A stretch of DNA of 64,000 bases from assembly GCA_003327455.1 (NCBI GenBank), contig QOQU01000004.1, forward strand, positions 390,042 through 454,041, in the 5' to 3' direction. Each line of letters opens with the position of its first letter. The stretch's first letter is position 1. A program made the translations under genes and the position numbers. Below the pieces are notes generated by a model. That model did not search any database. It worked only from the letters and a program-made list of their open reading frames with translations, and was not told where the DNA came from. Below are positions 20,272-36,906 of this stretch, in pieces. The DNA is from Anaerolineae bacterium (GTDB lineage Bacteria > Chloroflexota > Anaerolineae > Anaerolineales > UBA4823).

Positions 20272-20279
20272 AGAATCAA

Positions 20280-21494
20280 CTATTCCAATAACCAGTAGGC
20301 AATCTCTTGCACAAATACTTTGAACGGATCCGATTCGGCCGCCGCAATGAACAGGCCAAAACGCCCTTTGAGATAGGCACTATCCCGCACTTCGGCAAGC
20401 AAGATGTTGTTGGCATACAGCTTCAGGGTCGAGCCGTTTGCCCAAACGCCCAGGCGGTTGGTCTGGTTGGCGCCGCTCAGGATTGCCTGGGAAGCGGTCC
20501 ATTCTTGCAAGGGGGTATAGTTGCTCCCATCCCACTTGTAGATGCGGAAGCGGCCCTCACAGGAAAAGCCATAGACATAACCGGCGTTGGGATTGGGTGC
20601 CCGAAAGAGCAAACCGTAACGGTCTTTGCCGCTGCATTGCTCGCCCGTGCGAAATTCGACCTGCATGTAGAAATCCTGAATGGCAGCGTGGGTGGCTAAG
20701 CCCCATTCCTCCCTGCCACCTGGGGTGGCTTCCATGATCAAGGCGCCATCTTTGACCTTAAATTCGGTGGTATTGGTTTCCAAAAGGTACCAGTTGGCAG
20801 CATTCTTAAAGGTATCCCGCCAGGTCGGCGACCCCAGGTTCAAATCGCTGACTGTCTCAGAAACCACAATGCGCACCCAAAATGGTTTATCGGCTTTTTC
20901 GCCAAGCCCAAAGCGGCTGCCATCGGCGCTTTTCAACATCCATTGCCCCTGATATTGACCGCTTTCCAGAGGTGCCGTCATTTCTACAGAAAGATCAACG
21001 GTCTCCTGCGGTTGTACATAGCCGGTCAGAGGAATTTCAAGCGCAGCTTCCAGACGATCCCCTTCAACGAAGACCAGGGCATATTGCGGCGACCAGGTGC
21101 AATCACCGCTGTTGCGCAGACGCCAGGTTTTGTTAAATCGCTCGCCGGGTTTGAAGGAGGTATTATCGGGTACACTGACATCCTTGACAAATTCCGCTCG
21201 ATCGGTGCAGAGATCGCTGCGCGGCGTTGGCAGGGTAGCGGTGGGCGTGTTTGTGGGTCGGGTCGGCAGGGTTGGCGAAGGCGCCGGCGGGACGGTGGCA
21301 GTCGGAGGCGCCAGGGTGCCAGCCATCTGGGTCATGAGCAGGATTTGCACCGCCTCGGAGGTCATGGTAGGGGCTGCTGATTCCGGAGGTGGGGTTTGGA
21401 GCTGGGAAGCAGGAAAATTACAACTCACCAGAAACACCATAATCAAGGCAAGGGTCACCCACGCAAAAATTCGATTTTTCCACAAACGCTTCAT
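20280..21494 (-). CDS. Secreted lipoprotein: NBR1-type Ig-like domain plus a LamG/DUF1080-like beta-sandwich
   Basis: Lipobox LVSCNF. The NBR1 signature reads CTDRAEFVKDVSVPDNTSFKPGERFNKTWRLRNSGDCTW. The C-terminal 190 aa (FYMQVEFR...YGLLFR...FRIYKW...LYANN) looks like a concanavalin-type fold. Confidence 0.65.
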   Translation of the reverse strand: MKRLWKNRIFAWVTLALIMVFLVSCNFPASQLQTPPPESAAPTMTSEAVQILLMTQMAGTLAPPTATVPPAPSPTLPTRPTNTPTATLPTPRSDLCTDRAEFVKDVSVPDNTSFKPGERFNKTWRLRNSGDCTWSPQYALVFVEGDRLEAALEIPLTGYVQPQETVDLSVEMTAPLESGQYQGQWMLKSADGSRFGLGEKADKPFWVRIVVSETVSDLNLGSPTWRDTFKNAANWYLLETNTTEFKVKDGALIMEATPGGREEWGLATHAAIQDFYMQVEFRTGEQCSGKDRYGLLFRAPNPNAGYVYGFSCEGRFRIYKWDGSNYTPLQEWTASQAILSGANQTNRLGVWANGSTLKLYANNILLAEVRDSAYLKGRFGLFIAAAESDPFKVFVQEIAYWLLE

Positions 21495-21941
21495 CTTCTT
21501 TCTCTCTCCTTATCGCCAAACCAGCCTCACGAATGGATTGTTAATCCTGTGCTAAGGGTATTATATCTTGTGTCCGCGAGACGAACTTTCTGCGTTAGCA
21601 GGTTCTGGTCGTCTGAGAAACAGGATTGGATAGCCAGCCTTACCCATCGGAAAAGCAGATCCATGTCAATAGGCTCTCTTCATCTCATGGACGCAAACCC
21701 AAGGTCTTTTGTTCTCCTAATGGATTAAGCGTACCCATCCTTCGTCAAAAAGGCGGCTGTTTGCAATGCTCACGCTTGCTCTCTCCTCAAGGGTGAAAAG
21801 TGAAACAACGTTTTTACCGAGTCGTGGCAAAAATCTTCTTTTCATCAGCATCGCTTCTCTCAACAATTTCCTGCATGGATAGTCCTGCTGAAAAAACCAG
21901 TTTCAGTTGCTCTCCACGAACAGAGGTTATATAATAAAATC

Positions 21942-22307
21942 ATGAGTGTCATCCCTTTACCGCCCCCTGTTTCGGTTCGAAAACGCATTCCCATGCGCGT
22001 CATTCGCGCGGTCGTTGATCATATTGCCAAAACATTTCAACCGGAAAAAATCATCCTTTTTGGTTCTTACGCCTATGGCAAGCCAACACCAGGGAGTGAC
22101 ATTGATCTTCTTGTCATCATGGACTCTCCAAGAGACGACCTTGAAACCGCTTTGGAGATTCGCCGTTCGTTTCCTTTACTCAATTTTGGTCTCGATATCA
22201 TTGTGCGTTCTTCCGAAACCATCGAACTGCGCAAACAGCTTGGAGATTGGTTTTTGATTGAAGTTACCGAGAGAGGCAAAATTCTCTATGAACGACCTGA
22301 CCGATGA
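21942..22307 (+). CDS. Nucleotidyltransferase (MNT) antitoxin-type protein
   Basis: The GSYAYGKPTPGSDIDLLV motif (GSxxxGxxxxxSDxDL) of the pol-beta superfamily is present. Size is 121 aa. Confidence 0.85.
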   Translation: MSVIPLPPPVSVRKRIPMRVIRAVVDHIAKTFQPEKIILFGSYAYGKPTPGSDIDLLVIMDSPRDDLETALEIRRSFPLLNFGLDIIVRSSETIELRKQLGDWFLIEVTERGKILYERPDR

Positions 22308-22683
22308 ATGGGTCAACAAGGCCGAGAATGATTTTGCTGCTGCCGAGGTCACGCTTTACGCGCAAAAGGGACCCATTACCGATGCAGTATGTTTTCACTC
22401 TCAACAATGTGCTGAAAAATATCTAAAAGCCTTTCTCCAGGAAAACCGTATTCGTTTTGAAAAAACTCATGTTCTTGCCTATTTGCTTGACTTGTGTCTA
22501 ACCCTTGATGAGGATTTCAAAATTATTGCGACCGATCTGGCTGAATTGGATAGTTACGGGGTTGCAATTCGCTATCCAGGCACTAATTTGACGCCAGATT
22601 ATGCTTTTCGAGCATTTGAAACTGCCCGGAGGGTACGTGCTTTTATCAGGGGGAAGTTAAATCTTGCAGAAAAGAGTGGATAG
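22288..22683 (+). CDS. HEPN-domain protein (toxin partner of MNT)
   Basis: About 131 aa from the ATG at 22288 (MNDLTDEW), overlapping the MNT gene by 20 nt. It carries an RFEKTH (Rx4H) motif and an AEKYLKAFL helix typical of PF05168-type HEPN. Confidence 0.8.
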   Translation: MNDLTDEWVNKAENDFAAAEVTLYAQKGPITDAVCFHSQQCAEKYLKAFLQENRIRFEKTHVLAYLLDLCLTLDEDFKIIATDLAELDSYGVAIRYPGTNLTPDYAFRAFETARRVRAFIRGKLNLAEKSG

Positions 22684-22722
22684 CAATTCGATAGTGTGTT
22701 CTTCATCACAAAGGATGAAACA

Positions 22723-22755
22723 GGAAACGCCGCTCATCGCTATTGTGGCGTTTCC
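22723..22755. terminator. Hairpin between the convergent HEPN and ptsI genes
   Basis: GGAAACGCC-15 nt-GGCGTTTCC, a 9-bp stem, with no clear T tract on either side. Confidence 0.35.
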
Positions 22756-22809
22756 CCTTGCACAGGGGAGATCGTTAGTCCCCAGCCAATGGCAACTGAT
22801 GCGGGAGTT

Positions 22810-24552
22810 TTAGCGGGGCGTTTGACTTTTCAGATACTCGATCACCTCTGCTGCCAGAGAGAATTGTAAACACCGCTGCGCCACTTCCTCACACGCTGAC
22901 AGTGTCCATTGCCGAATCAATTGTTTGATGGTGGGGATAGAAGAAGGTGCCATGCTGAATTCATCCAAATGCAAACCGACCAGCAGGGGCACTGCCAGGG
23001 GATCACCAGCCAACTCCCCACACAACCCCACCCACTTGCCCTGCGTATGGGCAGCCCGAATGGTCATCTCAATCAGCCGCAGCACGGCAGGGTGATAGGG
23101 GCTTGCCAGTGCCGAAACCCGTTCGTTGGTTCGGTCTACTGCCAGGGTGTATTGGGTCAGGTCGTTGGTGCCAATACTGAAGAAGTCCACCCGCGACGCA
23201 AAGTGATCGGCGAGAAGCGCCGCCGAAGGCACCTCCACCATGATGCCGAATTGAACCTGCTGTGGCAGCGGTTTGCCCTCCGCCTGCAAGGCTGCTCTGG
23301 CTTCTTCGTAAATTTCGCGCGCCCGCTCTACCTCCGCCACCGAAGAAACCATCGGCAGCATGATGCGCAAATCACACTTGCCCGCTTCGGCAATGACCTG
23401 CCCGGCTGCCTGCAACAAGGCGGAAAACTGGTTTTGCAGCACATCCGGTCGTTCGCGGATCATGCGAATAGCCCGCCAGCCCAGAAACGGGTTGGGCTCC
23501 TTTTCCATGCCAAGATATGGGACCTCTTTATCGCCGCCAATATCCAGCGTGCGCACCACCAGCGGTCGCCCATCCAGAATCTCAAACACACGCCGATAGG
23601 CGCGCACCTGCTCGACAATGGAGGGCATGGTGCTGCGCTCCAGGTATAAAAATTCAGTACGGAACAACCCTACCCCTTCGCCCCCAAATTGCAACACCTG
23701 TTCGGCATCTTCCACCCCACCAATGTTGGCGACCACTTCTGCCCGAAAGGCGCCATCTCTGGTGATAGCTGGTAGCTCAGCCTCCTTCAGCTCCGCCTGA
23801 CGCCGAGCCTCCCACTCTGTTTTTTCTTTTCGCGCCACTTCCAACTCATGGAGGGTAGGGCCAACGTTAAAAACTCCACTGTTGCCGTTGAGAATTGCCA
23901 GCGTGCCACTGCGGATGTCGTTGAGGTCGAATTGAGCGCTGACCACGGCGGGGACCCCCATCGCCCGCGCCAGAATTGCCGAGTGCGAGGTCGGCCCGCC
24001 CCGCGCCGTGACAATGCCTAGAATCTTCTGCCGGTCAAAACGGATGGTATCCGATGGCGTCAGGTCTTCTGCGACAACGATTACCGCTTCCTTCCATGTC
24101 TCCAGACTATCCTGATCGCTATCCTCTTCCAGGCATCTCATCACCCGCTGGGCAACATCGCGCAAATCCTGAGCCCGCGCCTGGAAATAGGCCTCTTCCA
24201 GCCCCAGCAGGGCTTCGGCATATTGTTCAAACGTGTGATGCACAGCCGCTTTGGCGTTCAAATGTTCATCTAATATCAGTGTTCGTAGTCTGGCAAGCAA
24301 TTCCTCATCAATCAGGAACAAACGATGGGCTTCAAAGATGGCTGCTTCTTCTTCGCCGGCAATTTTCCTAGCCCGCTCTTGCAGAGCCATCAACTGGGTA
24401 TCCGCTTTGTGCAGAGCTTCCTGGAGACGCTGCCACTCGGCGTGAGGGTCTGCAATGCGGTGTTCGGTGAAGGTAATCTTTTGAGGGCGATATGGCAACA
24501 CTTGCCCGATCGCTATGCCGGGCGAGGCGGGTAATCCCTGGTAACGAGGCAT
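22810..24552 (-). CDS. ptsI: Phosphoenolpyruvate-protein phosphotransferase (PTS Enzyme I)
   Basis: 580 aa with phospho-His region GGPTSHSAILARAMGVP and a PEP-utilizer TIM barrel (FFSIGTNDLTQY, VGLCGE). Confidence 0.95.
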   Translation of the reverse strand: MPRYQGLPASPGIAIGQVLPYRPQKITFTEHRIADPHAEWQRLQEALHKADTQLMALQERARKIAGEEEAAIFEAHRLFLIDEELLARLRTLILDEHLNAKAAVHHTFEQYAEALLGLEEAYFQARAQDLRDVAQRVMRCLEEDSDQDSLETWKEAVIVVAEDLTPSDTIRFDRQKILGIVTARGGPTSHSAILARAMGVPAVVSAQFDLNDIRSGTLAILNGNSGVFNVGPTLHELEVARKEKTEWEARRQAELKEAELPAITRDGAFRAEVVANIGGVEDAEQVLQFGGEGVGLFRTEFLYLERSTMPSIVEQVRAYRRVFEILDGRPLVVRTLDIGGDKEVPYLGMEKEPNPFLGWRAIRMIRERPDVLQNQFSALLQAAGQVIAEAGKCDLRIMLPMVSSVAEVERAREIYEEARAALQAEGKPLPQQVQFGIMVEVPSAALLADHFASRVDFFSIGTNDLTQYTLAVDRTNERVSALASPYHPAVLRLIEMTIRAAHTQGKWVGLCGELAGDPLAVPLLVGLHLDEFSMAPSSIPTIKQLIRQWTLSACEEVAQRCLQFSLAAEVIEYLKSQTPR

Positions 24553-24570
24553 TGTCGCTTCCCTCTCGTC

Positions 24571-24870
24571 TCAGGAATGAGGGACAGTGGTTTCGCCGAA
24601 ATTGCTTTCGACCAGTTCCATCAGCGCCTGAATGGCTGCCTGGGCTTCCTCCCCCTCGGCGATGATTTCAACCGTATCGCCCTGGTTGACCCCCAGGGTC
24701 AACACGCTGAGCGGACTTTTGGCGTTGGCGGGCGGTTTTTCCGAGTTGACCTTGCGCACGCTGATCTTGCATGGGAAGCGGGCAGCCGTCTTGACAAACT
24801 GGGCGGCTGGGCGGGCATGCAACCCGGCAGGATGTTCAATGGTGATGGTGGTTGAGATCGTCTGGGTCAT
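24571..24870 (-). CDS. ptsH: Phosphocarrier protein HPr
   Basis: 99 aa with the His-15 context GLHARPAA and a regulatory Ser context AKSPLSVLTLG. Confidence 0.93.
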   Translation of the reverse strand: MTQTISTTITIEHPAGLHARPAAQFVKTAARFPCKISVRKVNSEKPPANAKSPLSVLTLGVNQGDTVEIIAEGEEAQAAIQALMELVESNFGETTVPHS

Positions 24871-24873
24871 TGA

Positions 24874-26178
24874 TTAATATCCTAATATCCTTTCCTGCTC
24901 TTTTCTCAGCCGGTAAATGGTCTGACTTTGGTTCAATTCAATCTCTTCGTAATGAATTGGCTCATGCGCCTTGACCGTCCGGGTTATTGTTCCACCAACA
25001 ACTAGTCCTAACGGAACTTCGCCATGTTGGCGGGCTTTCTCTGCACGCTCGATCATGCCATAAACCGTGTATCCACCGAGTGTATCGATTTTCTCCCCGG
25101 GCTGTAAATCACGCTTGGCATAGGCCACCGTTTCCGCTACCGGCGGACAATGGGTAGCTAACAATTCCTCTTTATCCAACGCAACACGGGCAACCGTGAT
25201 TGGCGCTTCCAGATTGGCAAGATGATATGGCCGATATAGCGCCCAATAGTTATGATCCGGATTGCCCAGCAGCCGTAAGTAGCGCAGGTCACGGATAATT
25301 TTCGGCTGATCAGTAGTAATGATGACAAACACACCTGGCGCAACATCGCCAACAGCAAAGTCCACTGCCCTAATGCTATTGAAGATGCCGCCAGCTTCTT
25401 TGGGGACAAAGATATTTGGTAAATCCTTGACTGTACAGTTTGGGCCATAACATCCAGTCACTTCTGGCGAATATCCCAAGGCGTTACCAATTGATGTCAT
25501 TTCCACCATTGTTTTTGTCCCATCTACAAAGGAAGTTAGCATCTTCGGGTTCATTAACTGTTTTTTCGCCGCTGCCTGCAATTGATCCGGCGTTGCCGAA
25601 CGGTCAAGTGGATTATTCTTGCCCTTGCCAATATAGACGATTTCAAAACCCAGTGCATCGGCAAAATCATATAATTCTTTAATTGAACCAGGCTCATCAC
25701 CAGCCGCAAGGGTGTAAACGACGCCTTTATCTTCCGCCATTTTAGTCAGCATGTAACCAATGGTGGCATCCGCTTCTACGTTCATATTGATCACACTTTT
25801 AACGTTTTGAATGGCGGTATAACAAACTTGCGCTCCCACTTCTGGCACCCCCGTACATTCCAAAATGACATCCAGCGCGCCAATTTCAACCAGAAAATTG
25901 GCATCGGTTGTCGCAATCCGTTTACCAGCCGCAATCAGTTCGGAGGCCTTCTGGGGATTTTCATCAAGGTGAACCACCGTATCTGCCGGCACACCACTTT
26001 CTAGATATCCCTTTTCAGCTTGGCCGGGGATGATATCGGCAGTGGCAACCACTCGCAAACCATCCATTTTTTCAGTCTGGCTTATAAAGCCAATTCCCAT
26101 TTGACCGGCGCCAATCAGCCCTACCCTTACCGCCCCGTTCTGTTGTGCATATTTTTTAAGACGATCCCGCAGTGACAT
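24874..26178 (-). CDS. NAD(P)-binding dehydrogenase with a C-terminal SAF domain (COG4091-like, homoserine-dehydrogenase-like fold)
   Basis: Rossmann loop VGLIGAGQMGIGF near the N-terminus. Length of about 434 aa and the C-terminal beta-clip-like region fit the SAF-oxidoreductase family. I prefer the start at the ATG at 26178 (MSLRDR). Confidence 0.6.
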   Translation of the reverse strand: MSLRDRLKKYAQQNGAVRVGLIGAGQMGIGFISQTEKMDGLRVVATADIIPGQAEKGYLESGVPADTVVHLDENPQKASELIAAGKRIATTDANFLVEIGALDVILECTGVPEVGAQVCYTAIQNVKSVINMNVEADATIGYMLTKMAEDKGVVYTLAAGDEPGSIKELYDFADALGFEIVYIGKGKNNPLDRSATPDQLQAAAKKQLMNPKMLTSFVDGTKTMVEMTSIGNALGYSPEVTGCYGPNCTVKDLPNIFVPKEAGGIFNSIRAVDFAVGDVAPGVFVIITTDQPKIIRDLRYLRLLGNPDHNYWALYRPYHLANLEAPITVARVALDKEELLATHCPPVAETVAYAKRDLQPGEKIDTLGGYTVYGMIERAEKARQHGEVPLGLVVGGTITRTVKAHEPIHYEEIELNQSQTIYRLRKEQERILGY

Positions 26179-26238
26179 TTTAATAAAGCCTTTCCAGGTA
26201 AAAAATAATTGCAAAATATACTCTGCCCCAAAGATTTA

Positions 26239-26616
26239 TCAAGAACAGTTTGTAAACGAAAAGTAATCTCCCACCCGAATCGGGGGGAGGGGGCGAACCT
26301 CCGCGCAAATATCACCAGGCATCTCAGGCTTATGTTCGCCATTAAACTTGATAATAAAATGCCCAAGCGCCTTTAAGTTTTGGTTTGCCACCTCCCCAAC
26401 AGCAAGGATAGTAAAACACTCGTCCTCAAGACAGAATTGATCTCCAACGGTAATATCTTCGACCAATGTTCCACCATCATGTAAGATGGAAAATTCTCTT
26501 AATTCATCTGGAGCATTTTGCCCAAAGAAAACTAGGACACCCGCAGATATAAATTCATCTACCAGCGGACCAATTTCTGAAATTCTCGCCGCATACTTGA
26601 TGATGTGCTTGTCCAT
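26239..26616 (-). CDS. srlB: PTS glucitol/sorbitol-family EIIA
   Basis: 125 aa that aligns by eye to E. coli SrlB across its length (EIGPLV..F...G.LVFFG.NAP.EL..F...H, GD...L....F.I.AVGE.AN.NL..LGH). Confidence 0.88.
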   Translation of the reverse strand: MDKHIIKYAARISEIGPLVDEFISAGVLVFFGQNAPDELREFSILHDGGTLVEDITVGDQFCLEDECFTILAVGEVANQNLKALGHFIIKFNGEHKPEMPGDICAEVRPLPPIRVGDYFSFTNCS

Positions 26617-26625
26617 TGGGATGCC

Positions 26626-27012
26626 CTATTCTTCAATTAGTTCAATGTCCTCGGGGCGAACACCTGATACAAAATATTCTTCGGTGATAAAACGCATTAG
26701 TGGCCCGGAAGGCGAGGTTGGATAGATATCCACTGTTGGCACTTTCTTCATAGGGTAAACTCCAACTCGAGCAGTACCGCCACAGTCAATTACTGCGACT
26801 GCAATTTCACTAAAATCAGCTTTGGATTTGAATCCATCAAATGGTCGCCCACCTGTAAGGTCAGCTATAAGCTGAGCCAGTGGATGAATTCCACCGCCAG
26901 TGACCGAGTATATAAGATCGCGTCCCGGTTTGGGCTCTATAATAAGCGGTCCGCCCCAGCCTTTAGGACCTTTTTTAATACGAACTTTGCGATATTTTTT
27001 TTCCTCAGTCAT
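26626..27012 (-). CDS. srlE: PTS glucitol/sorbitol-family EIIB domain (equivalent to the N-terminal third of E. coli SrlE)
   Basis: KGPKGWGGPLIIEPKPG matches EKGTGGWGGPLELKATPG, and AVIDCGGTARVGVYP matches AVIDCGGTLRCGIYP (active Cys). Confidence 0.88.
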   Translation of the reverse strand: MTEEKKYRKVRIKKGPKGWGGPLIIEPKPGRDLIYSVTGGGIHPLAQLIADLTGGRPFDGFKSKADFSEIAVAVIDCGGTARVGVYPMKKVPTVDIYPTSPSGPLMRFITEEYFVSGVRPEDIELIEE

Positions 27013-27095
27013 CGTATCAACCTCCGTGATGTATTAAATATTGTTATAGGGTGTGAAGTTTGCAATTTGATGCTCACTCCACACCCCTTTATTTT

Positions 27096-27629
27096 TTAGA
27101 GACCCACGCTGAATATCCAGGCTATGATCACAGCAATAGGACCGGTAATCAAGCGAGAGAATAATACAGCGGGTACACCAACCTCTACTGTCTCAGGTTC
27201 AGCTTCACCCAGCGCGAGACCTACCGGGATAAAGTCGCATCCGACTTGCGGGTTGATGGCAAAGAGCGCTGGGAGTGCAATGTAGGCAGGGAGAGCTTTT
27301 ATGGCAAATTGCGTACCAAGCAACGTCCCAATGATCTGGGCAATCACAGCACCAGGGCCGAGCAATGGGGACAAAACTGGCAGACCTATGATAAGTGACA
27401 TAATGATCAAACCAATCGGACTATTTGCTAAAGGTTGGAGCGCTTTTGCCAGTAAATCACCAACGCCGGTAGCCAAAATGATACCGATGATGAAGGCAAT
27501 GAATGCCATGAAGGGGAGAATGTTCTTGACGACTTGGTCAATGGATTCACGCCCTGCCTGATACAAAACACCTACAACCTTACCGGCACCGCGTCCAATT
27601 CGTTCAAGTAAAGAGGTTATCGCTTGCAT
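27096..27629 (-). CDS. PTS glucitol/sorbitol-family EIIC segment (equivalent to the C-terminal membrane part of E. coli SrlE)
   Basis: [30 protein letters not shown] matches [30 protein letters not shown], and [20 protein letters not shown] matches [20 protein letters not shown]. Confidence 0.88.
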   Translation of the reverse strand: [177 protein letters not shown]

Positions 27630-27641
27630 TTCATCATCTCC

Positions 27642-28181
27642 TTATGCTGTCCGTCTTGCCCATAGAAAAGCAGTTATACGCTCTGTAACGATACCGCGTA
27701 TGAAAATGACAATTAGCCCTACTATGAGGTAGCGCACCGCTAGCGCAGCCGTTTCGGCTTCACCATAACCGGTAGTTACGCCCTGTGCAATGCCTGCCCA
27801 AACAAACAATTCACCGGGATTGACGTGCGGGAAGATGCCCAAAGGTGGATGAACAAACGATACCGCAGCATCATAAAAAGCCGGTTTGTACTTTTCGGGC
27901 AGGAAGCGCCCCATAGTATAGGCCATCGGGTTGGTCAAAACGAAGACTGCAACTACTGGAAGGATCAAGTATCGTAGAGGCATGTACTTGAATCCCTCTT
28001 TACCAGCAGCTTCACCAATTTTGTCAATTCTCTCTTGACCGATCAATGCAATCAAGGCATTGAAAGCCGTTAACAGCACAATCACCAGCGGGATGATGCC
28101 GGTTACCAATCCAACGAAGACCTCTGATCCTTTTTGAAATAACCCAATAAACCATACGGCAGCTTGAACTAAAATATCCAT
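27642..28181 (-). CDS. srlA: PTS glucitol/sorbitol-family EIIC2 (SrlA)
   Basis: WFIGLFQKGSEVFVGLVTGIIP, GRFLPEKYKPAFY and PHVNPGELFVWAGIA match E. coli SrlA. I place the start at the ATG at 28181, 8 nt after AAGGAG; the track start at 28202 is a TTG upstream of that RBS. Confidence 0.9.
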   Translation of the reverse strand: MDILVQAAVWFIGLFQKGSEVFVGLVTGIIPLVIVLLTAFNALIALIGQERIDKIGEAAGKEGFKYMPLRYLILPVVAVFVLTNPMAYTMGRFLPEKYKPAFYDAAVSFVHPPLGIFPHVNPGELFVWAGIAQGVTTGYGEAETAALAVRYLIVGLIVIFIRGIVTERITAFLWARRTA

Positions 28182-28293
28182 TGTTATTTCTCCTTCTATC
28201 AAATATCAAAGTGCAGAGGTAAAACAGATAGTAACCATTTTATTGATATTAGATTTTCTTGCTCTTACACCTCCTAAAACGTTTTTGATAGAA

Positions 28294-28752
28294 TCAGGTG
28301 GAAGCGGTTTCGGTAAAACTGATCGACTTTTCTATTTCTTCCTCCTTTCTGCGAGCTTGAAACTCTAAAATATGTTTTGCTGCATCGCGCAAAGCTAGCG
28401 CCAGTTTGCCGCTGATGTGTTTAGGTAGGGGGGTTTCATCATTGAGCAAATCCTTTATTGTCATCCCTTCAAGACCGTGCACGGGCTTGAGACTAGCTAA
28501 AACAGTCCAGCCCGAAAGTTGCTCGCTCTGGTGAATAATCTCCGTCTTTGGGTCAACAACTAGAATGGCATACTGGCGTCGTTTCCATGTCGAACCTGCA
28601 ACGCCAATCGAGACAATATTGCCCGTCTTACGGAACTGACTGACCCGCCCATAAAATCGACGTAATTGAAAATAAGAAAGGAGCAATTGAAGCAACCACG
28701 CGCCTGCTAACCCAAGAATAATCATGGTTGCGGTAATATCCATTGGATGCAT
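28294..28752 (-). CDS. gutM: Glucitol operon activator GutM-like membrane protein
   Basis: 152 aa with an N-terminal TM helix then QLRRFY...GNIVSIG...G, a GutM/SrlM-like layout. It sits immediately upstream of srlA. Confidence 0.7.
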   Translation of the reverse strand: MHPMDITATMIILGLAGAWLLQLLLSYFQLRRFYGRVSQFRKTGNIVSIGVAGSTWKRRQYAILVVDPKTEIIHQSEQLSGWTVLASLKPVHGLEGMTIKDLLNDETPLPKHISGKLALALRDAAKHILEFQARRKEEEIEKSISFTETAST

Positions 28753-28767
28753 TCCACAAACCTCCTC

Positions 28768-30183
28768 TCACAGTATCATCAATTGCGGGTCTTCCAACGC
28801 GGTTTTCAAATCGCGCAGGAACGCGGCTGCCACTGCACCGTCCACAACGCGGTGATCGGCGCACAGGGTCAGATTTATCATCGGGCGAACCGCCACCTGA
28901 TCGTTTTCATCCGCAACGACCTCCTTGCGCACCGTACCCACTGCCAGAATGGCTACCTGCGGCGGGTTGATGATCGCCGTAAAACGCTCGACCCCAAACA
29001 TGCCCAGGTTGCTGATCGTAAACGTGCCATCGGCCACATCCTCAGGGCGCAGGCGATTTTCCCGGGCCCGGGCGGTCAGTTCATCCATCTCCTGTGCCAG
29101 TTGCAGCAGACCTTTGCTTTCGGACTGTTGAACCACCGGCACAATCAGCCCTTCTTTGAGCGCCACGGCAATCCCCAAATTGACCTGTTCGATGAGTACA
29201 ATCTGCTCACCCTGCGGGGTGGATTGCAGCCAAGCGTTTATATAGGGGTTGCGTTTGAGCGCCCAGGCACACGCCTTGGCCAGCACCGCAGTCAGACTGA
29301 CTTTGGGCTGTCCCTCGCTGCGTTGTTGGTTGGCTCTGGCGCGCAAGGCCTCAGCCTGGGTTACATCCACGCGAATTTCAAGGTTGATGTGCGGGGCTTC
29401 CTGCGCGCTCTTTTGCAAGCGCTGGGCTATCGTGCGGCGCATACCTGCCAGTGGCAGAACCTGAAAAGCCAGTTGCGTGGGGCGTTCAAGCTCAGCAGGT
29501 GCAGCCGGCAGCGGCTGAGGTATCTCAAGATGCGCTGGCTGCACCGCTTCGACGGCAGCGGACGACCGCCCGGCCAGAAAGCGCTGCACATCGGCAGACT
29601 GCACTCGCCCACTGGGCCCGCTGCCAGCCACTTCTGCCAGTTCCACACCCGCTTCACGTGCCAGCCGGCGCGCAGCCGGGACAGCGCGCACTTTTCCCCC
29701 CGCCTGGCGGTTGAGCGCAGCCTCTACATCACGGCGGGTAATCTTCCCGCTCGGACCGCTGCCCTGTATACCCTGCAGTTCCAGCCCGGCTTCGCGGGCA
29801 ATGCGCTCGGCCAGCGGCGTGGCTTTGACCAGCGGCATACTCTGCGGTGCTGCGGCAGGGGGTGCTTCAACCGCTGCGGAAGGCGCGGTTGGCGGCTGTG
29901 TGGCTGACCCGGCAGTTGCGGGCAGCGCTTCACCCGGCGCCAGAATGTAGGCAATAACTTCGGTCACCGGCACAATATCACCCTCTTTGTAACGCAGATC
30001 GGTAAGGATACCACTGGCTGGGGCTTCCACTTCCATGTTGACCTTGTCGGTGGTCACTTCGGCAATCGGGTCGCCTGCTTCTACCGCATCACCGGCTTTC
30101 TTCAGCCAGTGAACGATTTCAGCCGTTTCCTGCGTGAAACCGAATTTGGGCATAATCACTTCGCGCGCCATTGTCCGCCTCAC
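28768..30183 (-). CDS. Dihydrolipoamide acyltransferase (E2) of a 2-oxoacid/acetoin-type dehydrogenase complex
   Basis: Lipoyl domain [14 protein letters not shown], two peripheral-subunit-binding domains ([23 protein letters not shown] and [22 protein letters not shown]), and catalytic [13 protein letters not shown]. Confidence 0.93.
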
Positions 30184-31166
30184 ACCTTTAACGCCACCAG
30201 ATTGCGGGCTTCTTCGAGGATGTTTTCCACCTGAGGTACGGCGTGGTATTCCAGATTGCGGTTGTAGGGAATGGGAATATCCAATCCGCCCAGCCGGCGG
30301 ATGGGCGCTTCCAGATAGTCGAAGGCGGAACTTTCGGCAATGCGCGCGGCAATTTCACCGCCGAAACCGGCCATCTTGACCGCTTCGTGCACAATCAGCA
30401 CTTTACCAGTCTTGACCACAGATTCCAGAATGGGTTCTTCATCCAGCGGGCGCAGGGTGCGCGGGTCAATGATTTCGACTTCGATGCCCTCCTGTGCCAG
30501 TTTTTCTGCTGCTTGCAGGGCACGCTGAACCATGATAGAAGTTGCCACAATGGTCAGGTCCTTCCCGGAGCGCACCACATGACTTTTACTGAGCGGCACA
30601 CGGTACATCTCTTCCGGTACTGGTCCTTTGATTTTGTACAGCAGTTTGTGTTCGACAAAGATGACTGGGTTATCATCTTCAATCGAGGCAATCAGCAGCC
30701 CTTTGGCGTCGTAGGGCGTGCTGGGCATGACCACCTTCAGCCCCGGGACGTGCACAAACCAGTTTTCCAGACTTTCGGAATGCTGTGCCGCCGCACCGGT
30801 GCCGGAGCCGCCTGGCATGCGTAGCACGAACGGAACTTTGGCCTTTCCGCCGAACATAAAGCGGATTTTGGCCGCCTGCAGAACCAGTTGCTCCATGCTG
30901 AGGGTGACGAAGTCCATGAATTGAATCTCACCTACCGGGCGAAAACCGGTCAGGGCGGCCCCGATACACGCCCCGGCAATCCCCGCTTCCGAAATGGGCG
31001 TATCTATCACACGTTCTTCACCAAATTGCTGAATTAGCCCAGCAGTGGCGCCAAATGCGCCACCGTACACACCAATGTCCTCGCCAATGAGGAAGACAGT
31101 CTCATCCTCGCTCATTTTTTGATGGAGGGCTTCGCGGATGGCTTCAACGTAGGTGATTTCACGCAT
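30180..31166 (-). CDS. 2-oxoacid dehydrogenase E1 beta subunit
   Basis: [14 protein letters not shown]...GEDIG.YGG.F..T.GL...FG..RV.DTPISE is the classic E1beta/AcoB N-terminus. The start at 31166 overlaps the E1alpha stop by 8 nt. The longer track ORF to 31268 runs through E1alpha. Confidence 0.92.
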
Positions 31167-32166
31167 AGACTCCCTCGAGAATGGTGCTGAGATCGGGCTC
31201 TGGGCTGGCGTTGGCAAATTCCACCGCCTCATCAATGATGGCTTGTGCCTTATTGACAATTTCCTCATAATCGGCTTCGCTCATATCCAGCAGATGGGCA
31301 AGGCGATGAATCGGATCACGAGCTTGCCATTCTTTGACTTCATCGCGGGTTCGATAGGCCTGTCGATCACTCTTGGAATGCCCCTTCCAGCGGTAGGTCA
31401 GTGCTTCCACCAAGGTAGGCCCCTCTCCGTTGCGCGCCCGTTCACCAGCGGTGCGTATAGCGTCGTATACTGCCAGTACATCGTTGCCGTCCACTGACAC
31501 GCCAGGGATGCCATAGGAACAAGCACGCTGGCTGATAAACCGGATATTGAAGGCTTTTTGCACCGGCATGGACATGGCGTACTGATTATTTTCGCACAGA
31601 TAAATGACCGGCAAATTCCAAATACTGGCCATATTCAGCGATTCGTGAAAAGCACCTTCATTGGCAGCCCCATCCCCAAAGATAGTCAGGCAGACCTGTT
31701 GGGTTTTGCGTTTTTTGATGCTCAAACCGACGCCTATCGAAATGGGAATGCCGCCGCCGACAATGCCGTTGGCGCCCAGATTGTTCTTCTCAACATTTGC
31801 AATGTGCATCGACCCCCCTCGGCCGCGGCAGTAGCCGGTTTCCTTACCCAAAAACTCGGCCATCATCAGCCGCACATCACTGCCCCATGCCAGACAATGC
31901 CCATGTCCGCGGTGATGGTTGAGCAGATAATCACCGTCCTGCATGGCTGCGGATGCGCCTACAGCAACTGCTTCCTGCCCTATGGAAAGGTGCATGGTAC
32001 CGTGAACCAGCCCGCGTGAAAACAAGTCCTCGGCTTTATCTTCAAAGGCGCGGATAATATTCATTTTCAGAACCCACTCCCGCAGACGGGGTTCTCCTAA
32101 TTCTTCTATCAGCCTCTGATGGTTTGGCTGATATATTTCTGTTTCCAAAAGAGAAGTCCATTCCAT
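31159..32166 (-). CDS. 2-oxoacid dehydrogenase E1 alpha subunit (TPP-binding)
   Basis: [11 protein letters not shown] and the TPP motif [36 protein letters not shown] (GDG..N). Confidence 0.92.
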
Positions 32167-32169
32167 AAA

Positions 32170-33135
32170 TTATTTTGTCTTTTCTCCTTCAATGTATTTC
32201 TGAATGCGTAATGCAGCAATTTCATCAGTTACCAAGTGATTAATGAAGCCTGCCCGGCTGGCTGCCAGAATGGGCAGCGCCTTCGACTGACCTCCTGCCA
32301 CCCCAATCCGAATCGGGATAGCACGCAGCGTTTGGGCATCCACGCCGACAATGCAGCGGGTCAAGGGGGTGTCAATCAGGTTGCCACGAATGTCAATGTG
32401 AATGGCGCAAACATCCCCCACCGCCCCAGCCTCACGCAGCGACTCAAGCTGTTCGAAATCGAGATAACCAGCGCGTAGTAAGCTACAGTATTCAAAATCC
32501 ACTGTGCCAACCCCTACCAGCGCTAAGTCAATCTGCGAAAATTGGTGAATCACCCGCTGAATATGAGGGGCTTTCAACAACGCTGTTCGAGTCTCGGGAC
32601 TATCCACGATCAGCGGTAAGGGCATTGTCGCATATTGGCCGCCAAGTAGACGAGCCAGACGGCGCGTCAGTTCCGGTCCATCAATATCCGGATTAGGAGT
32701 GCCCAGCGAACCGATCATTTGCACGACCCGAAGCCCTTCCCATGTTTGGGGGCGCACCGCATTGACCGTTTCGAACAATGCTGTCCCCCACGAGGTGCCA
32801 ATGGTGATGTGTTCGTGCAAGTGTTCTTCCAGCAATAGTGCAGCTATGGCACCCAGGCGACGCAGCATTTCGGTATGGGTCAACGCTCCGCGCTGCAGAA
32901 CGCGCACTTCGTCAAGGACCAAGACATCGCGCAAATACTCTTCCAATGGGTGCAAACGCTGAAGGGGGTAATGGATGCGAATCTCAACGATGTTGTTTTC
33001 GCGCGCTTCAGTAATCATGCGCGAAATCATCGAACGCGAATACCCTACCTGTTGAGCAATCTGGCTCTGGGTCAAATTCTGCTCGTAGTACATTTCGACA
33101 ATGCGGGCAAGCAATTCCATTCGCTGCATATCCAT
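32170..33135 (-). CDS. SorC-family sugar-binding transcriptional regulator
   Basis: N-terminal HTH LLARIVEMYYEQNLTQSQIAQQVGYSRSMISRMI followed by a sugar-phosphate-binding domain (GVAGG..K...I.A). Confidence 0.88.
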   Translation of the reverse strand: MDMQRMELLARIVEMYYEQNLTQSQIAQQVGYSRSMISRMITEARENNIVEIRIHYPLQRLHPLEEYLRDVLVLDEVRVLQRGALTHTEMLRRLGAIAALLLEEHLHEHITIGTSWGTALFETVNAVRPQTWEGLRVVQMIGSLGTPNPDIDGPELTRRLARLLGGQYATMPLPLIVDSPETRTALLKAPHIQRVIHQFSQIDLALVGVGTVDFEYCSLLRAGYLDFEQLESLREAGAVGDVCAIHIDIRGNLIDTPLTRCIVGVDAQTLRAIPIRIGVAGGQSKALPILAASRAGFINHLVTDEIAALRIQKYIEGEKTK

Positions 33136-33195
33136 GGCGGAGGTTGTAGGAAAACGGATTTTTAATAAGTTACAGTATTACAAGAAAAAGTCAAG

Positions 33196-33224
33196 ACATA
33201 TGTGCAAAACAATTCACATATGTG
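33196..33224. promoter_or_regulatory. Two palindromic ACATATGT boxes 20 bp apart (candidate operator upstream of the SorC-led array)
   Basis: ACATATGT at 33196-33203 and CACATATGTG at 33215-33224, with centres 20 bp apart, sit 60-90 bp upstream of the sorC start (33135) in an AT-rich region. Confidence 0.35.
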
Positions 33225-33820
33225 AACTCGATAAAGCGCAGGTAAAATTGTAAAGACAAAAAAGTGACTGTTCTTAAGTTGAAAAAAATTATCAAGAGGC
33301 TATGCAAGAATCCTTCCATCCCCTCTAAGACCGTCGAAAAACTCTTTTATAGAAAAGTCGGAAAAAAACATCCCCCTTTAGGCTAAAAATGACTAAAAGT
33401 GGCACGATAAAGTCAATAAAATGGCAATTTTAGTGAAAGGGAGCGACGAATAGGGGAAACAAAAATGCGTTTCCAGATGCAAGAAGCGGAAGATGTGGTG
33501 ATCAAGCGTGAATATTCGATGTATCCAAACGATGGGGCAACGATTTCGCCTCAGGCGAAAGGGCACAAACTTCAGGAGGGAGATTCGACTACGTGAAAAT
33601 TCGATTGCCTGGTGCGCTTTGTCCCCCAACAACCATTAAACACCGGATTCGCTATATTCAAAAGCCGAGGCAGGCGTGACGAATCCTGGCGTTTGCCCTC
33701 CCTTCGCATCCTGCACCTCATCCTATAGATTAACGCCAAAGGCGGATCACCCTGACTACAGTACCTGATAGGACAACCCCCAAAGAAGATCTCTCTCGGG
33801 CGCCTGCCTCAACCTCATCC

Positions 33821-34609
33821 CTACTTATCAACCAGAGTAAAAGACCGCTGAGCTTCGATACGGATCAGCTCCAATATCTGGTGTCGCAGTTCCACAAAGC
33901 GCAACGAGTTTTCGGTTTCTGGAGAACGCGGCCGCGGAAGATCAATCTCGATTTCTGATTTGATTGTTCCGGGGCGGCTGGTCATCACATAAACTCGATC
34001 TGAAAGCAAAATTGCTTCTTCCACGTCGTGGGTAACAAACAAAACGGTAGTACGCTCGATCTCCCAGACACGCAACAGCAACTCCTGCATCAGCAAGCGC
34101 GTTTGGGCATCTAAGGCCCCAAAGGGTTCGTCCATCATCAGCATCTGTGGGCGATAGACCAGCGCCCGAGCAATCGCGACCCGCTGGCGCATACCGCCCG
34201 AAAGATGCGCCGGATAAGCTTTTTCAAAACCTTCCAACCCCACGCGCCGAATGTAATCTATAACAAGCTCATCTTGCTGCTCACGTGGCAGGTTTCGATT
34301 CTGCAGTGCAAAGCGGATGTTCTCATAAACACTCAGCCAGGGGAAGAGGGTGTAACTTTGAAAGACCATGCCGCGTTCAATCGAGGGACCATTGATTTCC
34401 TCGCCGTTGAACAACACACGCCCTTCAGTGGGAAAATCCAACCCTGCTGCAATCACCAGGAAGGTCGACTTACCGCATCCCGAAGGTCCGATCAGGGAAA
34501 CGAACTCGTTTTCAGCCACTCGCAGGTTCAGATCAGCAATCGCCGTGACCAGACGGCCGCGTTGCACGAAGGTTTTCCCCACGTTTTCGGCGACCAACTT
34601 ATCGGCCAT
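33821..34609 (-). CDS. ABC transporter ATP-binding protein (NitT/TauT nitrate/sulfonate/taurine family)
   Basis: Walker A GPSGCGKST, signature LSGGMRQRVAIARAL and Walker B LMMDEPFGALD. Size is 262 aa. Confidence 0.9.
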   Translation of the reverse strand: MADKLVAENVGKTFVQRGRLVTAIADLNLRVAENEFVSLIGPSGCGKSTFLVIAAGLDFPTEGRVLFNGEEINGPSIERGMVFQSYTLFPWLSVYENIRFALQNRNLPREQQDELVIDYIRRVGLEGFEKAYPAHLSGGMRQRVAIARALVYRPQMLMMDEPFGALDAQTRLLMQELLLRVWEIERTTVLFVTHDVEEAILLSDRVYVMTSRPGTIKSEIEIDLPRPRSPETENSLRFVELRHQILELIRIEAQRSFTLVDK

Positions 34610-35444
34610 TGAGGCTGCGCTCCACCCAGGGGAATAAAAAGCGATGCGTTACTTTGAACAGGTAATCAGTCACCAGCCCCAGTAACCCGATGACCAGAAT
34701 GCCAAGGATAATCGACTCGGTTTGCAAAAAGCGCTGGGCACGCATGATGCGATACCCCAAACCGATATTTGCCGCTACCAGTTCGGCGACCACCAAATAT
34801 GTCCACGCCCATCCCAACGTGAGGCGGAAGGTATCCCAAATCCCGGGCAGAGAGGCGGGCAGGACTACCCGAGTCAGGACTTTCCATTTGCTTAAGCCAA
34901 AGGTATAACTCACCTGAATCATGCCGTATGGGACGGTCTTGACATTGTCCATGATCATCAGCACTTCTTGAAAAAACGTGCCGATAAAGAGGATGGCAAA
35001 TTTTTGATTGTCTCCCACGCCCAGCCATAGAATGGTCAACGGCACAAATGCCACCGCCGGCATGTAGCGAACCAGATCAATTAACGGTTCAAACAAGCCC
35101 TCGAAGAAACGAAAGTTCCCCATCAGGATTCCAATGGGAACAGCAAAAACTGTAGAAAGAAGCCAGCCGATGGTGATCCGGTAAATGCTGGCGCGCATGT
35201 CCTCCCAGAGAATGCCATCGCTCACCTGGCGAAGCAGTTCATTCCAAACCGCTGTCGGCGAAGGCAGGAAGATCGGCGAAATCCATCCCTGGCTGGTAAG
35301 CAGCCACCAGGCAATGAAAATCAACAATGGTAGCGAGATACCAGCCAGGAGGTAAAGGCGCGTTGGAATCTCAGCGCGCAACTCAAAGTAAGAGAAGCGG
35401 CGGGAGATGGATGAGCGAGGCACGGCTTGTTTGCTGTCTGGCAA
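34599..35444 (-). CDS. ABC transporter permease (NitT/TauT family)
   Basis: 281 aa with about 6 TM segments and an EAA-like loop (MRAQRFLQTESIILGILVIGLLG). It overlaps the ATPase gene by 11 nt. Confidence 0.85.
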   Translation of the reverse strand: MPDSKQAVPRSSISRRFSYFELRAEIPTRLYLLAGISLPLLIFIAWWLLTSQGWISPIFLPSPTAVWNELLRQVSDGILWEDMRASIYRITIGWLLSTVFAVPIGILMGNFRFFEGLFEPLIDLVRYMPAVAFVPLTILWLGVGDNQKFAILFIGTFFQEVLMIMDNVKTVPYGMIQVSYTFGLSKWKVLTRVVLPASLPGIWDTFRLTLGWAWTYLVVAELVAANIGLGYRIMRAQRFLQTESIILGILVIGLLGLVTDYLFKVTHRFLFPWVERSLNGR

Positions 35445-35450
35445 GTTATC

Positions 35451-36407
35451 TCACTTATAAGCCGAAGTGTCCACGACTGCGTTCAAATCCGGGATTTTCT
35501 CCAGCAAGCCAATCGCCATAGACACCTGCCCCACGTCTTGCAGGATAGCGAGGAATTCACCCTTCAATGCTGTTTTGTTCTCAGTAAGATTATAGAACTT
35601 AATCCCATCAAAAGCAGTGACAAGCTCCTCCGGGACACTGCCAACCGCCTTAGCAATGATTGCCTTTGCTTCATCTGGATTGGCGGTGTAGAAAGCCAGC
35701 GCCTCATCCCAAACTTTAAGCAACTTTTCCGTGATCGCAGTATCAAGGTTGGCGCGGATCGCCAAAACATCGGAAATCAAGCCGGGGCGTTCGGCAGCGC
35801 TATAGAGCAAACGTAAGTCCTGATTCTCGGCTAGAGCGGCAGAAATGTACGGTTCGTACGTCACTGCCACATCCACCTGTCCGGCAATTAAAGCTGCGCC
35901 AGCGTCGGAAGCCGGCATAAAAATCGGTTCAATATCGCTTAATGTAAGATTGTTTTGGGAAAGCGCATAATTCAACAAGAGATCACTGGTCGTACCCTCC
36001 TCGTAAGCCACCTTCTTCCCCTTCAAATCGGCAACTGAAGTGATTGCAGAGGGAGCCAGAATAGCATCGGCTTCATAAGAGGCATCCTCCAGCAGGACAA
36101 TACGCAAATCAAGACCGCTGGCGTAGAGTTTGAGGGCTGTGTGAGTTGCCAGATTTGCAGCATCCATCTCCCCTGAAGCGAAGGCAGCATTCACTTCTTT
36201 ATCTTCTACAAAGTCTACCAATTCAACTTTCAACCCATGCTTCTCGAAGATACCCTTCTCCTGGGCAATCCACCAGGGTCCGTAACCGATCCAGGGTTGA
36301 GTGCCTATACGGACGACTGTCGGCGTCTCAGGTTTCCCACCACAAGCGCTGAGCACGAAAACAACAATAAGCAAGCCGCTCAACCAGAGAGATAATTTAG
36401 AGAACAT
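35451..36407 (-). CDS. ABC substrate-binding lipoprotein (NMT1/SsuA-like)
   Basis: Lipobox VLSACGG, then IGTQPWIGYGPWWIAQEKGIFEKHGL, typical of NitT/TauT binding proteins. Confidence 0.8.
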   Translation of the reverse strand: MFSKLSLWLSGLLIVVFVLSACGGKPETPTVVRIGTQPWIGYGPWWIAQEKGIFEKHGLKVELVDFVEDKEVNAAFASGEMDAANLATHTALKLYASGLDLRIVLLEDASYEADAILAPSAITSVADLKGKKVAYEEGTTSDLLLNYALSQNNLTLSDIEPIFMPASDAGAALIAGQVDVAVTYEPYISAALAENQDLRLLYSAAERPGLISDVLAIRANLDTAITEKLLKVWDEALAFYTANPDEAKAIIAKAVGSVPEELVTAFDGIKFYNLTENKTALKGEFLAILQDVGQVSMAIGLLEKIPDLNAVVDTSAYK

Positions 36408-36445
36408 CGGGGATCCTCCTTAGTTTTTTCTACCCAACAGCCTGA

Positions 36446-36473
36446 ATTTTATCAAAAAAGAAAGGGTTGTCAA
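36446..36473 (-). promoter_or_regulatory. Near-consensus sigma70-like promoter (TTGACA-16-TAAAAT) for the ABC operon
   Basis: On the minus strand the -35 TTGACA is at 36468-36473 and the -10 TAAAAT at 36446-36451. The AAGGAGG RBS and the ATG at 36407 follow. Confidence 0.5.
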
Positions 36474-36565
36474 CACGCCCACACATAGCGTGAGCACACC
36501 TTTAATCGAACTCATCGACATTTTTATCAAATTCGGATAACATTGGAATAAAAACTGAGGCAAAC

Positions 36566-36811
36566 ATGATCAACCAGGAAGATCAGGAAAAATTAGCGAA
36601 CGAGGTAGCAAAGGGGCTGCGCGAATGGATGGAACAGCATCCTGAAACAACCTTTGCAGAGATTGAACAAGAACTCTGGAAGCGTGTCTCCCAAATCCAG
36701 GCAGAGGTGGTGAAGGCGATCATGAAGCGCATAGAAGCGGCACAGAATGAAGGGATGGCGTTGAAGAAACTGATGGAGGACGGGGAAGGGAACGCAGAAT
36801 CGGGCAAATAA
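36566..36811 (+). CDS. Hypothetical 81-aa acidic helical protein
   Basis: ORF with a GAGG RBS and no motif I can name. The HPETTFAEIEQELW segment faintly resembles N-termini of some IS-family transposases, which is unsupported speculation. Confidence 0.35.
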   Translation: MINQEDQEKLANEVAKGLREWMEQHPETTFAEIEQELWKRVSQIQAEVVKAIMKRIEAAQNEGMALKKLMEDGEGNAESGK

Positions 36812-36854
36812 AAAGCCCTTGCAGATGCAAGCGGCGCAAGAGGGATTCATGGCA

Positions 36855-36892
36855 TAAAAAAACCTCCCGCAGATTTCGTTTCCTGCGGGAGG
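36855..36892 (-). terminator. Rho-independent terminator of the cytochrome/NrfC/NrfD operon
   Basis: Minus strand: CCTCCCGCAG-10 nt-CTGCGGGAGG (36863-36892), followed by a T8 tract (+ strand A8 at 36855-36862), 15 nt after the stop at 36907. Confidence 0.8.
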
Positions 36893-36906
36893 AAGTCAAT
36901 CGAAAA

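Follow-up and report, generated by a model that had tools for sequence, protein, structure and literature searches.

The question raised by the locus described here is why a glucitol-family phosphotransferase system (PTS) is encoded in a single array with the E1 and E2 components of a 2-oxoacid-dehydrogenase-type complex. The array occupies positions 22810–33135 on the minus strand of the window, the term used here for the whole analysed stretch of 64,000 nucleotides (Anaerolineae bacterium, GenBank assembly GCA_003327455.1, contig QOQU01000004.1, positions 390,042 to 454,041). It is very likely that the array is one catabolic unit, led by sorC, in which E1/E2 cleave a keto-sugar phosphate derived from the PTS. 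The specific route, in which 2-C-methyl-D-erythritol (ME) would be taken up as its phosphate (MEP), converted to DXP (1-deoxy-D-xylulose 5-phosphate) and split into acetyl-CoA and glyceraldehyde-3-phosphate, is predicted from the sequence and is, on balance, probable.

Twelve co-directional genes were confirmed by the listing of open reading frames and by Pfam and NCBIfam scans, in the same order and at the same places as in a preliminary description of this DNA. The first encodes a sugar-phosphate-sensing regulator of the SorC/DeoR (Bacillus)/LsrR type (32170–33135; PF04198, 1.2e-60, with an N-terminal helix-turn-helix). It is followed by the thiamin pyrophosphate (TPP)-binding subunit E1alpha (31159–32166; PF00676, 1.6e-90), E1beta (30180–31166; PF02779 and PF02780) and the E2 acyltransferase (28768–30183; PF00364 lipoyl, two PF02817 E3-binding and PF00198 catalytic domains). 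The PTS part begins with a GutM-like activator (28294–28752; PF06923, 4.8e-18) and SrlA, the Gut-family EIIC1 (27642–28202, with ATG 28181 as the likelier start; PF03608, 1.7e-73), which passed NF049923 with a score of 230 against the cut-off of 150. SrlE is encoded in two pieces, the membrane (C-terminal) part first (27096–27629; PF07663; positions 157–329 of the 330 in NF049924) and the EIIB (N-terminal) part second (26626–27012; PF03612; NF049924 positions 1–121, with the VIDCGGT cysteine). SrlB, the Gut-family EIIA (26239–26616; PF03829, 3.4e-34), an oxidoreductase of the DRL/DXR-II type (24874–26214, with ATG 26178 as the likelier start; PF21135), HPr (24571–24870; PF00381, 2.6e-30; His15 in GLHARP) and PTS enzyme I (EI, 22810–24552; PF05524, PF00391 and PF02896) complete the array.

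From sorC to EI, the intergenic gaps measure 3, −8, −4, 15, 91, 12, 83, 9, 24, 3 and 18 nt, which agrees with the earlier range of −8 to 91 nt and with the two overlaps then noted. The one between E1alpha and E1beta is 8 nt long, and the GTG start of E2 overlaps the stop of E1beta (GTGA). Neither E3 nor a SrlD of the short-chain dehydrogenase type was found within the array by open reading frame and domain scans, as had been described (the remaining genome was not searched for SrlD); the slot of SrlD is filled by the DRL gene.

The product of that gene had been called a SAF-domain dehydrogenase. The SAF domain and the oxidoreductase character were retained, and the family was corrected to DRL/DXR-II on the basis of PF21135 and of a structural match. 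The protein (about 434 amino acids) matched PF21135 (DRL_cat, 4.5e-60), PF08666 (SAF) and PF03447 (NAD-binding), and a structure-sequence comparison aligned it with the DRL of Brucella abortus (PDB 3UPL/3UPY; E = 2e-92 for 3UPL) over residues 19–445, with 39% identity over 423 positions. Within the family, true DXR-II have been separated from two sister groups that are uncharacterised, DLO1 and DLO2 (Carretero-Paulet 2013, PMC3847144). The 28 positions compared were those named in that paper as distinguishing DXR-II from DLO1/DLO2, as binding or as part of the dimer interface. The window protein is identical to the Brucella DRL at 24 of them, the exceptions being A64G, H250Y, P346T and T413H. 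G121, E174, F178, K191, K193, T229, R320, Y322, V351 and E353 are kept, and with them the fosmidomycin anchors (K191, K193 and T229); across the aligned DRL homologues, the DXR-II signature residues are kept in 86 out of 86. The oxidoreductase is a member of the type II DXP reductoisomerase family (DXR-II/DRL), and catalysis on DXP and MEP is predicted for it.

The tree of DRL sequences bears on this activity, as three DRLs from Acidimicrobiia nest within the PTS-linked clade. Their genomes have IspG and lack DXR-I, and therefore DRL must be their biosynthetic DXP reductoisomerase. The nesting of these sole enzymes within the clade is indirect evidence that the activity of the clade is the interconversion of DXP and MEP. 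At the three loci (L076, L079 and L080), DRL stands beside EI without a Gut PTS, and at two of them a gene of the inositol monophosphatase (IMPase) family adjoins. These loci have the appearance of leftovers from the cassette, with DRL turned into a housekeeping DXP reductoisomerase.

Conservation around DRL was assessed in 80 fetched loci from Chloroflexota, Spirochaetia and Acidimicrobiia (Actinomycetota); the Chloroflexota comprised Anaerolineales, Caldilineales, Ardenticatenales, Ktedonobacterales and a metagenome-assembled genome labelled Chloroflexus. A Gut-type PTS lies directly upstream of DRL in 74 of the 80 loci, and wherever both SrlE parts are present the protein is split with the membrane part first. 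E1alpha partners were counted at an identity of at least 45% within the fetched flank. By this measure an E1alpha of the window clade is found near DRL in 43 of the 80 loci (36/53 among loci of at least 15 kb), and E1/E2 lie upstream on the same strand in 16 cases, downstream on the same strand in 17 and on the opposite strand in 10. In 12 genomes without E1 within 10 kb, an E1alpha 50–66% identical is encoded elsewhere, with clade membership uncertain at the lower scores. That the partnership of E1/E2 and DRL is kept despite shuffled gene order is a classic sign of functional coupling, and the arrangement recurs in dozens of genomes and is therefore far beyond chance. The preliminary description had called for a comparison of the E1/E2-srl neighbourhood across genomes. 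It had also put forward the hypothesis that a polyol phosphate delivered by the PTS is oxidised by the SAF-domain enzyme to a keto-sugar phosphate, which E1/E2 then cleave oxidatively. Both the Gut PTS-DRL count and the E1/E2 count, the latter with its three arrangements, support this hypothesis.

If the DRL converts DXP and MEP, the next point is what these compounds could be used for in the host. The genome (3.9 Mb, 98% complete, average GC 51.3%) was searched with profiles, and no DXR-I, no Dxs above cut-off, no IspG and no PdxJ were found. A single weak match to ThiG was rejected, as it was PdxS, the DXP-independent synthase of pyridoxal phosphate (PLP). HMG-CoA reductase is present, and the window DRL is the only DRL gene of the genome. 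Since Dxs, DXR-I, IspG, ThiG and PdxJ are absent, DXP and MEP have no biosynthetic use in the host, and an enzyme that converts them can therefore only be catabolic there. For the same reason the genome is a clean test case. DXR-II enzymes are classed as serving the MEP isoprenoid pathway; in the host this pathway is absent, and HMG-CoA reductase is present.

Other carriers of the cluster were compared in the same respect. IspG is absent from 40 of 50 cluster-bearing genomes and present in 10, and seven of these 10 have DXR-I in addition to the PTS-linked DRL, which is therefore redundant for biosynthesis in them; the other three are the Acidimicrobiia described above. An ispD gene lies inside five clusters, all five in MEP-positive genomes, where it is placed in the PTS operon or heads the E1/E2 operon (the ispD of locus L073 passes TIGR00453 with 190 bits against a cut-off of 181). 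Its presence ties the cluster to MEP independently. It could also be taken to favour salvage, in which imported ME or deoxyxylulose would feed the synthesis of isoprenoids, thiamin or PLP instead of being broken down, and a biosynthetic function of DXR-II is known (PMC3847144). The absence of all five biosynthetic proteins from the host and of IspG from most carriers speaks against salvage, as does the fact that E1/E2 would have no role in it. A biosynthetic or salvage role in the host genome was rejected, and we give salvage a close to negligible probability.

The E1 and E2 proteins were compared with family models. E1alpha has the GDG...NN TPP motif and YRWKGHS and scored 369.8 with TIGR03182, below the cut-off of 393.85; E2 has DHRVVDG at residue 443 and the lipoyl motif TDKV and scored 361.4 with the equivalog model of pyruvate dehydrogenase (PDH), below the cut-off of 445. 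The only subfamily model passed was NF006667, by E1beta (385.8, cut-off 321). Both E1 and E2 are most like acetyl-transferring complexes, which points to a methyl-ketone substrate. As a precedent for the proposed chemistry, single-residue changes are reported to let the E1 of Escherichia coli PDH synthesise DXP (PMC3424233).

Six further E1alpha/E1beta sets are encoded in the host genome (C8:86642-89896, C17:248842-252080, C11:22901-26256, C19:76955-80248, C13:221123-224299 and C13:75898-77919), five of them with E2 and two with a fused E1alpha-beta. A single lipoamide dehydrogenase was found (C8:362712-364097), which lies outside the window, some 27 kb to its left, and of about 160 loci just 2 have E3 close to the cluster. 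For a genome of 3.9 Mb with one lipoamide dehydrogenase, this family of 2-oxoacid-dehydrogenase-like complexes is unusually large. In the E1alpha tree, almost all relatives of the window protein form one clade and the six host paralogues fall outside it; a group from spirochaetes, with the same gene arrangement as the window, branches beside three of the six.

Among the 80 closest E1alpha relatives, the block sorC-E1alpha-E1beta-E2 behaves as a module that is found in four contexts (types A to D). In type A, the arrangement of the window, the block is followed by GutM, the Gut PTS, DRL, HPr and EI. In type B it is followed by EIIA, EIIB and EIIC (PF03611) of the galactitol/ascorbate (Gat) type, HPr and EI, with a small protein of 130 amino acids that has no Pfam match and with no oxidoreductase (L135, L136, L137 (Thermanaerothrix daxensis), L143, L157, L175 (Pelolinea submarina), L178, L179 and L184). 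The E1alpha of L135 is 84–85% identical to that of the window, types A and B are interleaved in the E1alpha tree, and some loci hold both a Gut- and a Gat-type PTS. No DRL homologue of any kind is present in 9 of 17 type B genomes. As these Gat-PTS relatives lack the oxidoreductase, and more than half of the genomes lack DRL altogether, the substrate of E1 would be a phosphorylated ketone obtainable directly through a PTS. Gene context thus argues for a phosphorylated ketose from the PTS as the E1 substrate, as against pyruvate or acetoin. Uptake of 1-deoxyxylulose as DXP by the PTS fits type B, which may represent a variant of the pathway for 1-deoxyxylulose. Most simply, E1/E2 and SorC would recognise one and the same phosphorylated ketone, which the Gat PTS would deliver directly and the Gut PTS with DRL in two steps.

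These contexts also bear on the view that the array is an ordinary sorbitol or hexitol operon, with the SAF enzyme in place of SrlD (hexitol-6-phosphate to fructose-6-phosphate) and E1/E2 as an incidental pyruvate or acetoin dehydrogenase. SrlA, SrlE, SrlB and GutM do match glucitol models, and in a Listeria transcriptome the equivalent gut operon, with a SAF-domain protein and a sugar-binding regulator, was interpreted by its authors as a sorbitol operon (PMC11176438). The E1/E2 clade, however, accompanies sugar-uptake genes in all four contexts, usually together with SorC, and is separate from the six E1 sets of the host; in the Gat-PTS relatives there is no dehydrogenase, and E1/E2 must therefore use the product of the PTS itself; and both E1alpha and E2 fall under the PDH equivalog cut-offs. 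A plain sorbitol operon was rejected for these reasons, and we regard it as very unlikely.

An insertion had been suggested earlier as an alternative, by which two unrelated modules came to lie side by side. The cassette from gutM, its first gene, to DRL, its last (24874–28752), has a GC content of 44–49% (gutM 46%) and a GC at third codon positions of 33–47%, against 53–61% GC in sorC/E1/E2 and 57–59% in HPr/EI. Its boundaries coincide with the slot that holds the Gat-type PTS in type B relatives. As history, the insertion therefore stands, and the cassette has been exchanged for a different PTS in relatives; as a claim of unrelated function it does not, the exchanged piece being an alternative functional front end.

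The base composition and the occupation of the slot by different PTSs are what could be said for a foreign srl cassette inserted beside a functionally unrelated module. The link of DRL to E1 recurs across phyla in three independent arrangements, and a putative operator is common to types A and B. A terminator between E2 and gutM had been named earlier as a sign of independent units; this junction spans 15 nt, contains a GAGGAGG ribosome-binding site and shows no hairpin of note, and the terminator scan returned no sites within any intergenic gap of the array (and fewer sites overall than in shuffled sequence). Relatives that carry sorC-E1-E2 without PTS genes had been named likewise. Where the Gut PTS is missing, a different system for uptake and phosphorylation accompanies the block, namely a Gat-type PTS or an FGGY kinase together with an ABC transporter. 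Unrelated modules are, in our view, highly improbable.

The putative operator lies ahead of sorC (33196–33226, minus strand) and adjoins the −35 element on its upstream side. It consists of a palindrome, TTCACATATGTGAA (33213–33226), and a half-repeat, GCACATATGT (33196–33205), about 20 bp apart. The tandem motif TTCACAnnTGTGAA-N6-7-TTCACAnnTGT was found upstream of sorC in Gut PTS loci with DRL (L134, L004, L005, L021 and L153) and in Gat-PTS loci (L135, L136, L137, L143 and L157). The promoter-like site next to it (33167–33194, minus strand; TTGACT, 16 nt, TAACTT) was read by eye from the sequence; it is a weak match to the consensus, and the promoter/terminator scan did not flag it. Further promoter-like hexamer pairs occur on the minus strand at 26215–26242 and 28173–28209, in the AT-rich gaps before DRL and srlA, and may be either internal promoters or matches that arise by chance in low-GC DNA. 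The SorC protein would be a repressor that probably binds the TTCACAnnTGTGAA operator and senses a phosphorylated intermediate. With NCBIfam models it scored 197.7 bits for DeoR and 141.3 bits for LsrR, both under the equivalog cut-off, and the effector is therefore not assignable from the models. The effector, the PTS substrate, the direction of DRL and the substrate of E1 are what we infer from sequence and gene context.

On this basis, the following route is proposed. EI and HPr would pass the phosphate of phosphoenolpyruvate to the Gut-family PTS (SrlA, the two SrlE pieces and SrlB, with GutM), and ME would be imported and released as MEP. The Gut PTS of Salmonella reportedly carries methylerythritol (Testa 2004). 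DXR-II/DRL would then run backwards, turning MEP and NAD(P)+ into DXP by oxidation and rearrangement. In the third step, E1alpha/beta with TPP would attack the C2 carbonyl of DXP, split the C2–C3 bond and release glyceraldehyde-3-phosphate. This cleavage is modelled on that of acetoin by acetoin dehydrogenase and would amount to the second half-reaction of DXP synthase run backwards. The hydroxyethyl group would pass to the lipoyl arm of E2 and leave as acetyl-CoA, and the arm would be re-oxidised by the single lipoamide dehydrogenase encoded elsewhere in the genome.

Several points weigh against this route. The equilibrium of DXP reductoisomerase favours MEP, and reverse flux would need the pull of the irreversible oxidative cleavage. 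Position 250 is Tyr in the window DRL and His in most DXR-II. Named DLO1/DLO2 sequences are not contained in the DRL tree, and the DXR-II locus of Chloroflexus aurantiacus J-10-fl, whose enzyme was verified by complementation, was not among the 80 loci returned with the DRL of the Chloroflexus-labelled genome (L005) as query. In a wide protein search with DRL, the matches listed were Chloroflexota-like only and bore uninformative names; contexts from Firmicutes or Alphaproteobacteria were not among them, nor were DLO1/DLO2 sequences. Two genes of relatives have no role in the scheme: a class II aldolase-like gene (about 210 amino acids) directly after DRL in at least 25 relatives, and an IMPase-family gene after EI in 11. 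The former is degenerate, its metal-binding HxH being changed to CQP or CHP (e.g., L009:11369-11992 and L026:8431-9069), and neither is present in the window.

The two remaining contexts of the E1 module belong with these points, as their gene sets have no obvious link to DXP. Type C has a GpsA-like dehydrogenase before E1alpha, a divergent sorC, RpiB, an FGGY kinase and a CUT1 ABC transporter (L142, L144, L146-L149, L154-L156 and L159). Type D has GntR, a PfkB kinase, a split transketolase, a DRL-like protein of about 38% identity, a xylose-isomerase-like TIM barrel and a GFO/IDH/MocA oxidoreductase (L182, L185, L187-L189 and L207).

It is here that another substrate has to be considered, with the same logic of uptake, oxidation and cleavage applied to some other polyol, be it branched or 1-deoxy, or to a tetritol or pentitol, and with a DRL homologue not active on MEP/DXP. 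The E1 clade does occur with genes like those of tetritol pathways (FGGY kinase, RpiB, SorC and a polyol-phosphate dehydrogenase) and with the DRL-like proteins and transketolase of type D; the change of H250 to Y and a PTS whose specificity is not assigned would also agree with it. Conversely, the DXR-II signature was found in every aligned DRL, members of the clade are the sole DXP reductoisomerase in three MEP-positive genomes, ispD lies inside clusters of MEP-positive genomes, and E1/E2 are closest to acetyl-transferring complexes, which points to a methyl ketone. We consider a different substrate unlikely, and the ME route is kept as the working scheme.

The surroundings of the operon were inspected as well. 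Downstream of EI, a terminator-like GC-rich hairpin of 10 bp was seen (22722–22756, minus strand; stem GGAAACGCCG/CGGCGUUUCC, followed by UGUUUC), which in terms of fold energy does no better than shuffled sequence (z = −1.07). Just beyond the operon end, a lower-GC stretch on the plus strand (21942–22683) encodes an MNT nucleotidyltransferase and HEPN pair of the toxin-antitoxin kind. Two adjoining genes further on (18910–21494, minus strand) have NBR1-type Ig-like domains (PF16158), and one of them adds a domain like that of 3-keto-disaccharide hydrolases. Immediately upstream of the operon lies an ABC transporter (33821–36407, minus strand; ATPase, permease and an NMT1/THI5-like binding protein) that may take up a thiamin pyrimidine. 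Rfam gave no matches over 20000–38000 of the window, and thus no TPP riboswitch at the transporter.

The array could not be mapped to a described pathway when it was first annotated, and a full-text search of the literature likewise turned up neither an account of methylerythritol or deoxyxylulose catabolism nor one of a DRL-PTS-E1/E2 cluster. The novelty would lie in the combination of known enzyme families into a previously undescribed breakdown route. Active DXR-II has been recorded, unexplained, in Chloroflexus, where the mevalonate pathway is the only one in use, and in Finegoldia, where both pathways are missing (PMC3847144). More widely, DXR-II may be mainly catabolic, working with a Gut PTS and a "DXP dehydrogenase complex" in growth on free methylerythritol from plants, algae and stressed bacteria, with the Gat-type sister cassette feeding 1-deoxyxylulose to the same complex. 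This extension is put forward tentatively, as an idea that we rate a little short of probable.

The extension would account for the scattered distribution of DXR-II and would reveal a hidden flux of carbon from microbe to microbe in the form of MEP-pathway intermediates. If true, the scheme itself would provide a sugar-phosphate substrate for 2-oxoacid-dehydrogenase-type complexes and a catabolic pathway for a natural polyol that is abundant but has been overlooked. It would explain functional DXR-II in bacteria that have a normal DXP reductoisomerase or no MEP pathway, which has been an open matter since 2010–2013. It would also bear on drug work that treats DXR-II as a target in isoprenoid synthesis, and the DXP/MEP sink would be relevant to the engineering of the MEP pathway.

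Four known systems were compared with the locus. The DRL has the domain set of the Brucella abortus enzyme as well as its substrate-binding and diagnostic residues, and differs from it in its place within a PTS/E1/E2 operon, in a genome without the MEP pathway, and in the proposed oxidative direction. In E. coli and Salmonella, the gut/srl operon (srlAEBD-gutM-srlR-gutQ; TC 4.A.4) encodes homologues of SrlA, SrlE, SrlB and GutM. Its SrlE is a single polypeptide with EIIB before the membrane domain, whereas that of the window is split and permuted; the window operon also lacks SrlD, SrlR and GutQ, has a SorC-type regulator and includes HPr and EI. With acetoin dehydrogenase (AcoA/AcoB/AcoC/AcoL) and PDH, the locus shares the E1alpha/beta heterotetramer type and the lipoyl, E3-binding and catalytic domains of E2, and with acetoin dehydrogenase also the proposed chemistry, from an alpha-hydroxy methyl ketone to an aldehyde and acetyl-CoA; unlike them, it has no E3 in the operon, SorC instead of an AcoR-type activator, and a sugar phosphate as the proposed substrate. 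Finally, the Lsr system for autoinducer-2 (LsrR, LsrK, LsrG and LsrF) also has a SorC-family sensor of a phosphorylated five-carbon methyl ketone and ends in acetyl-CoA and a triose phosphate. It reaches them by ABC uptake, a kinase, an isomerase and a thiolase-like aldolase, and its likeness to the window operon is one of logic only.

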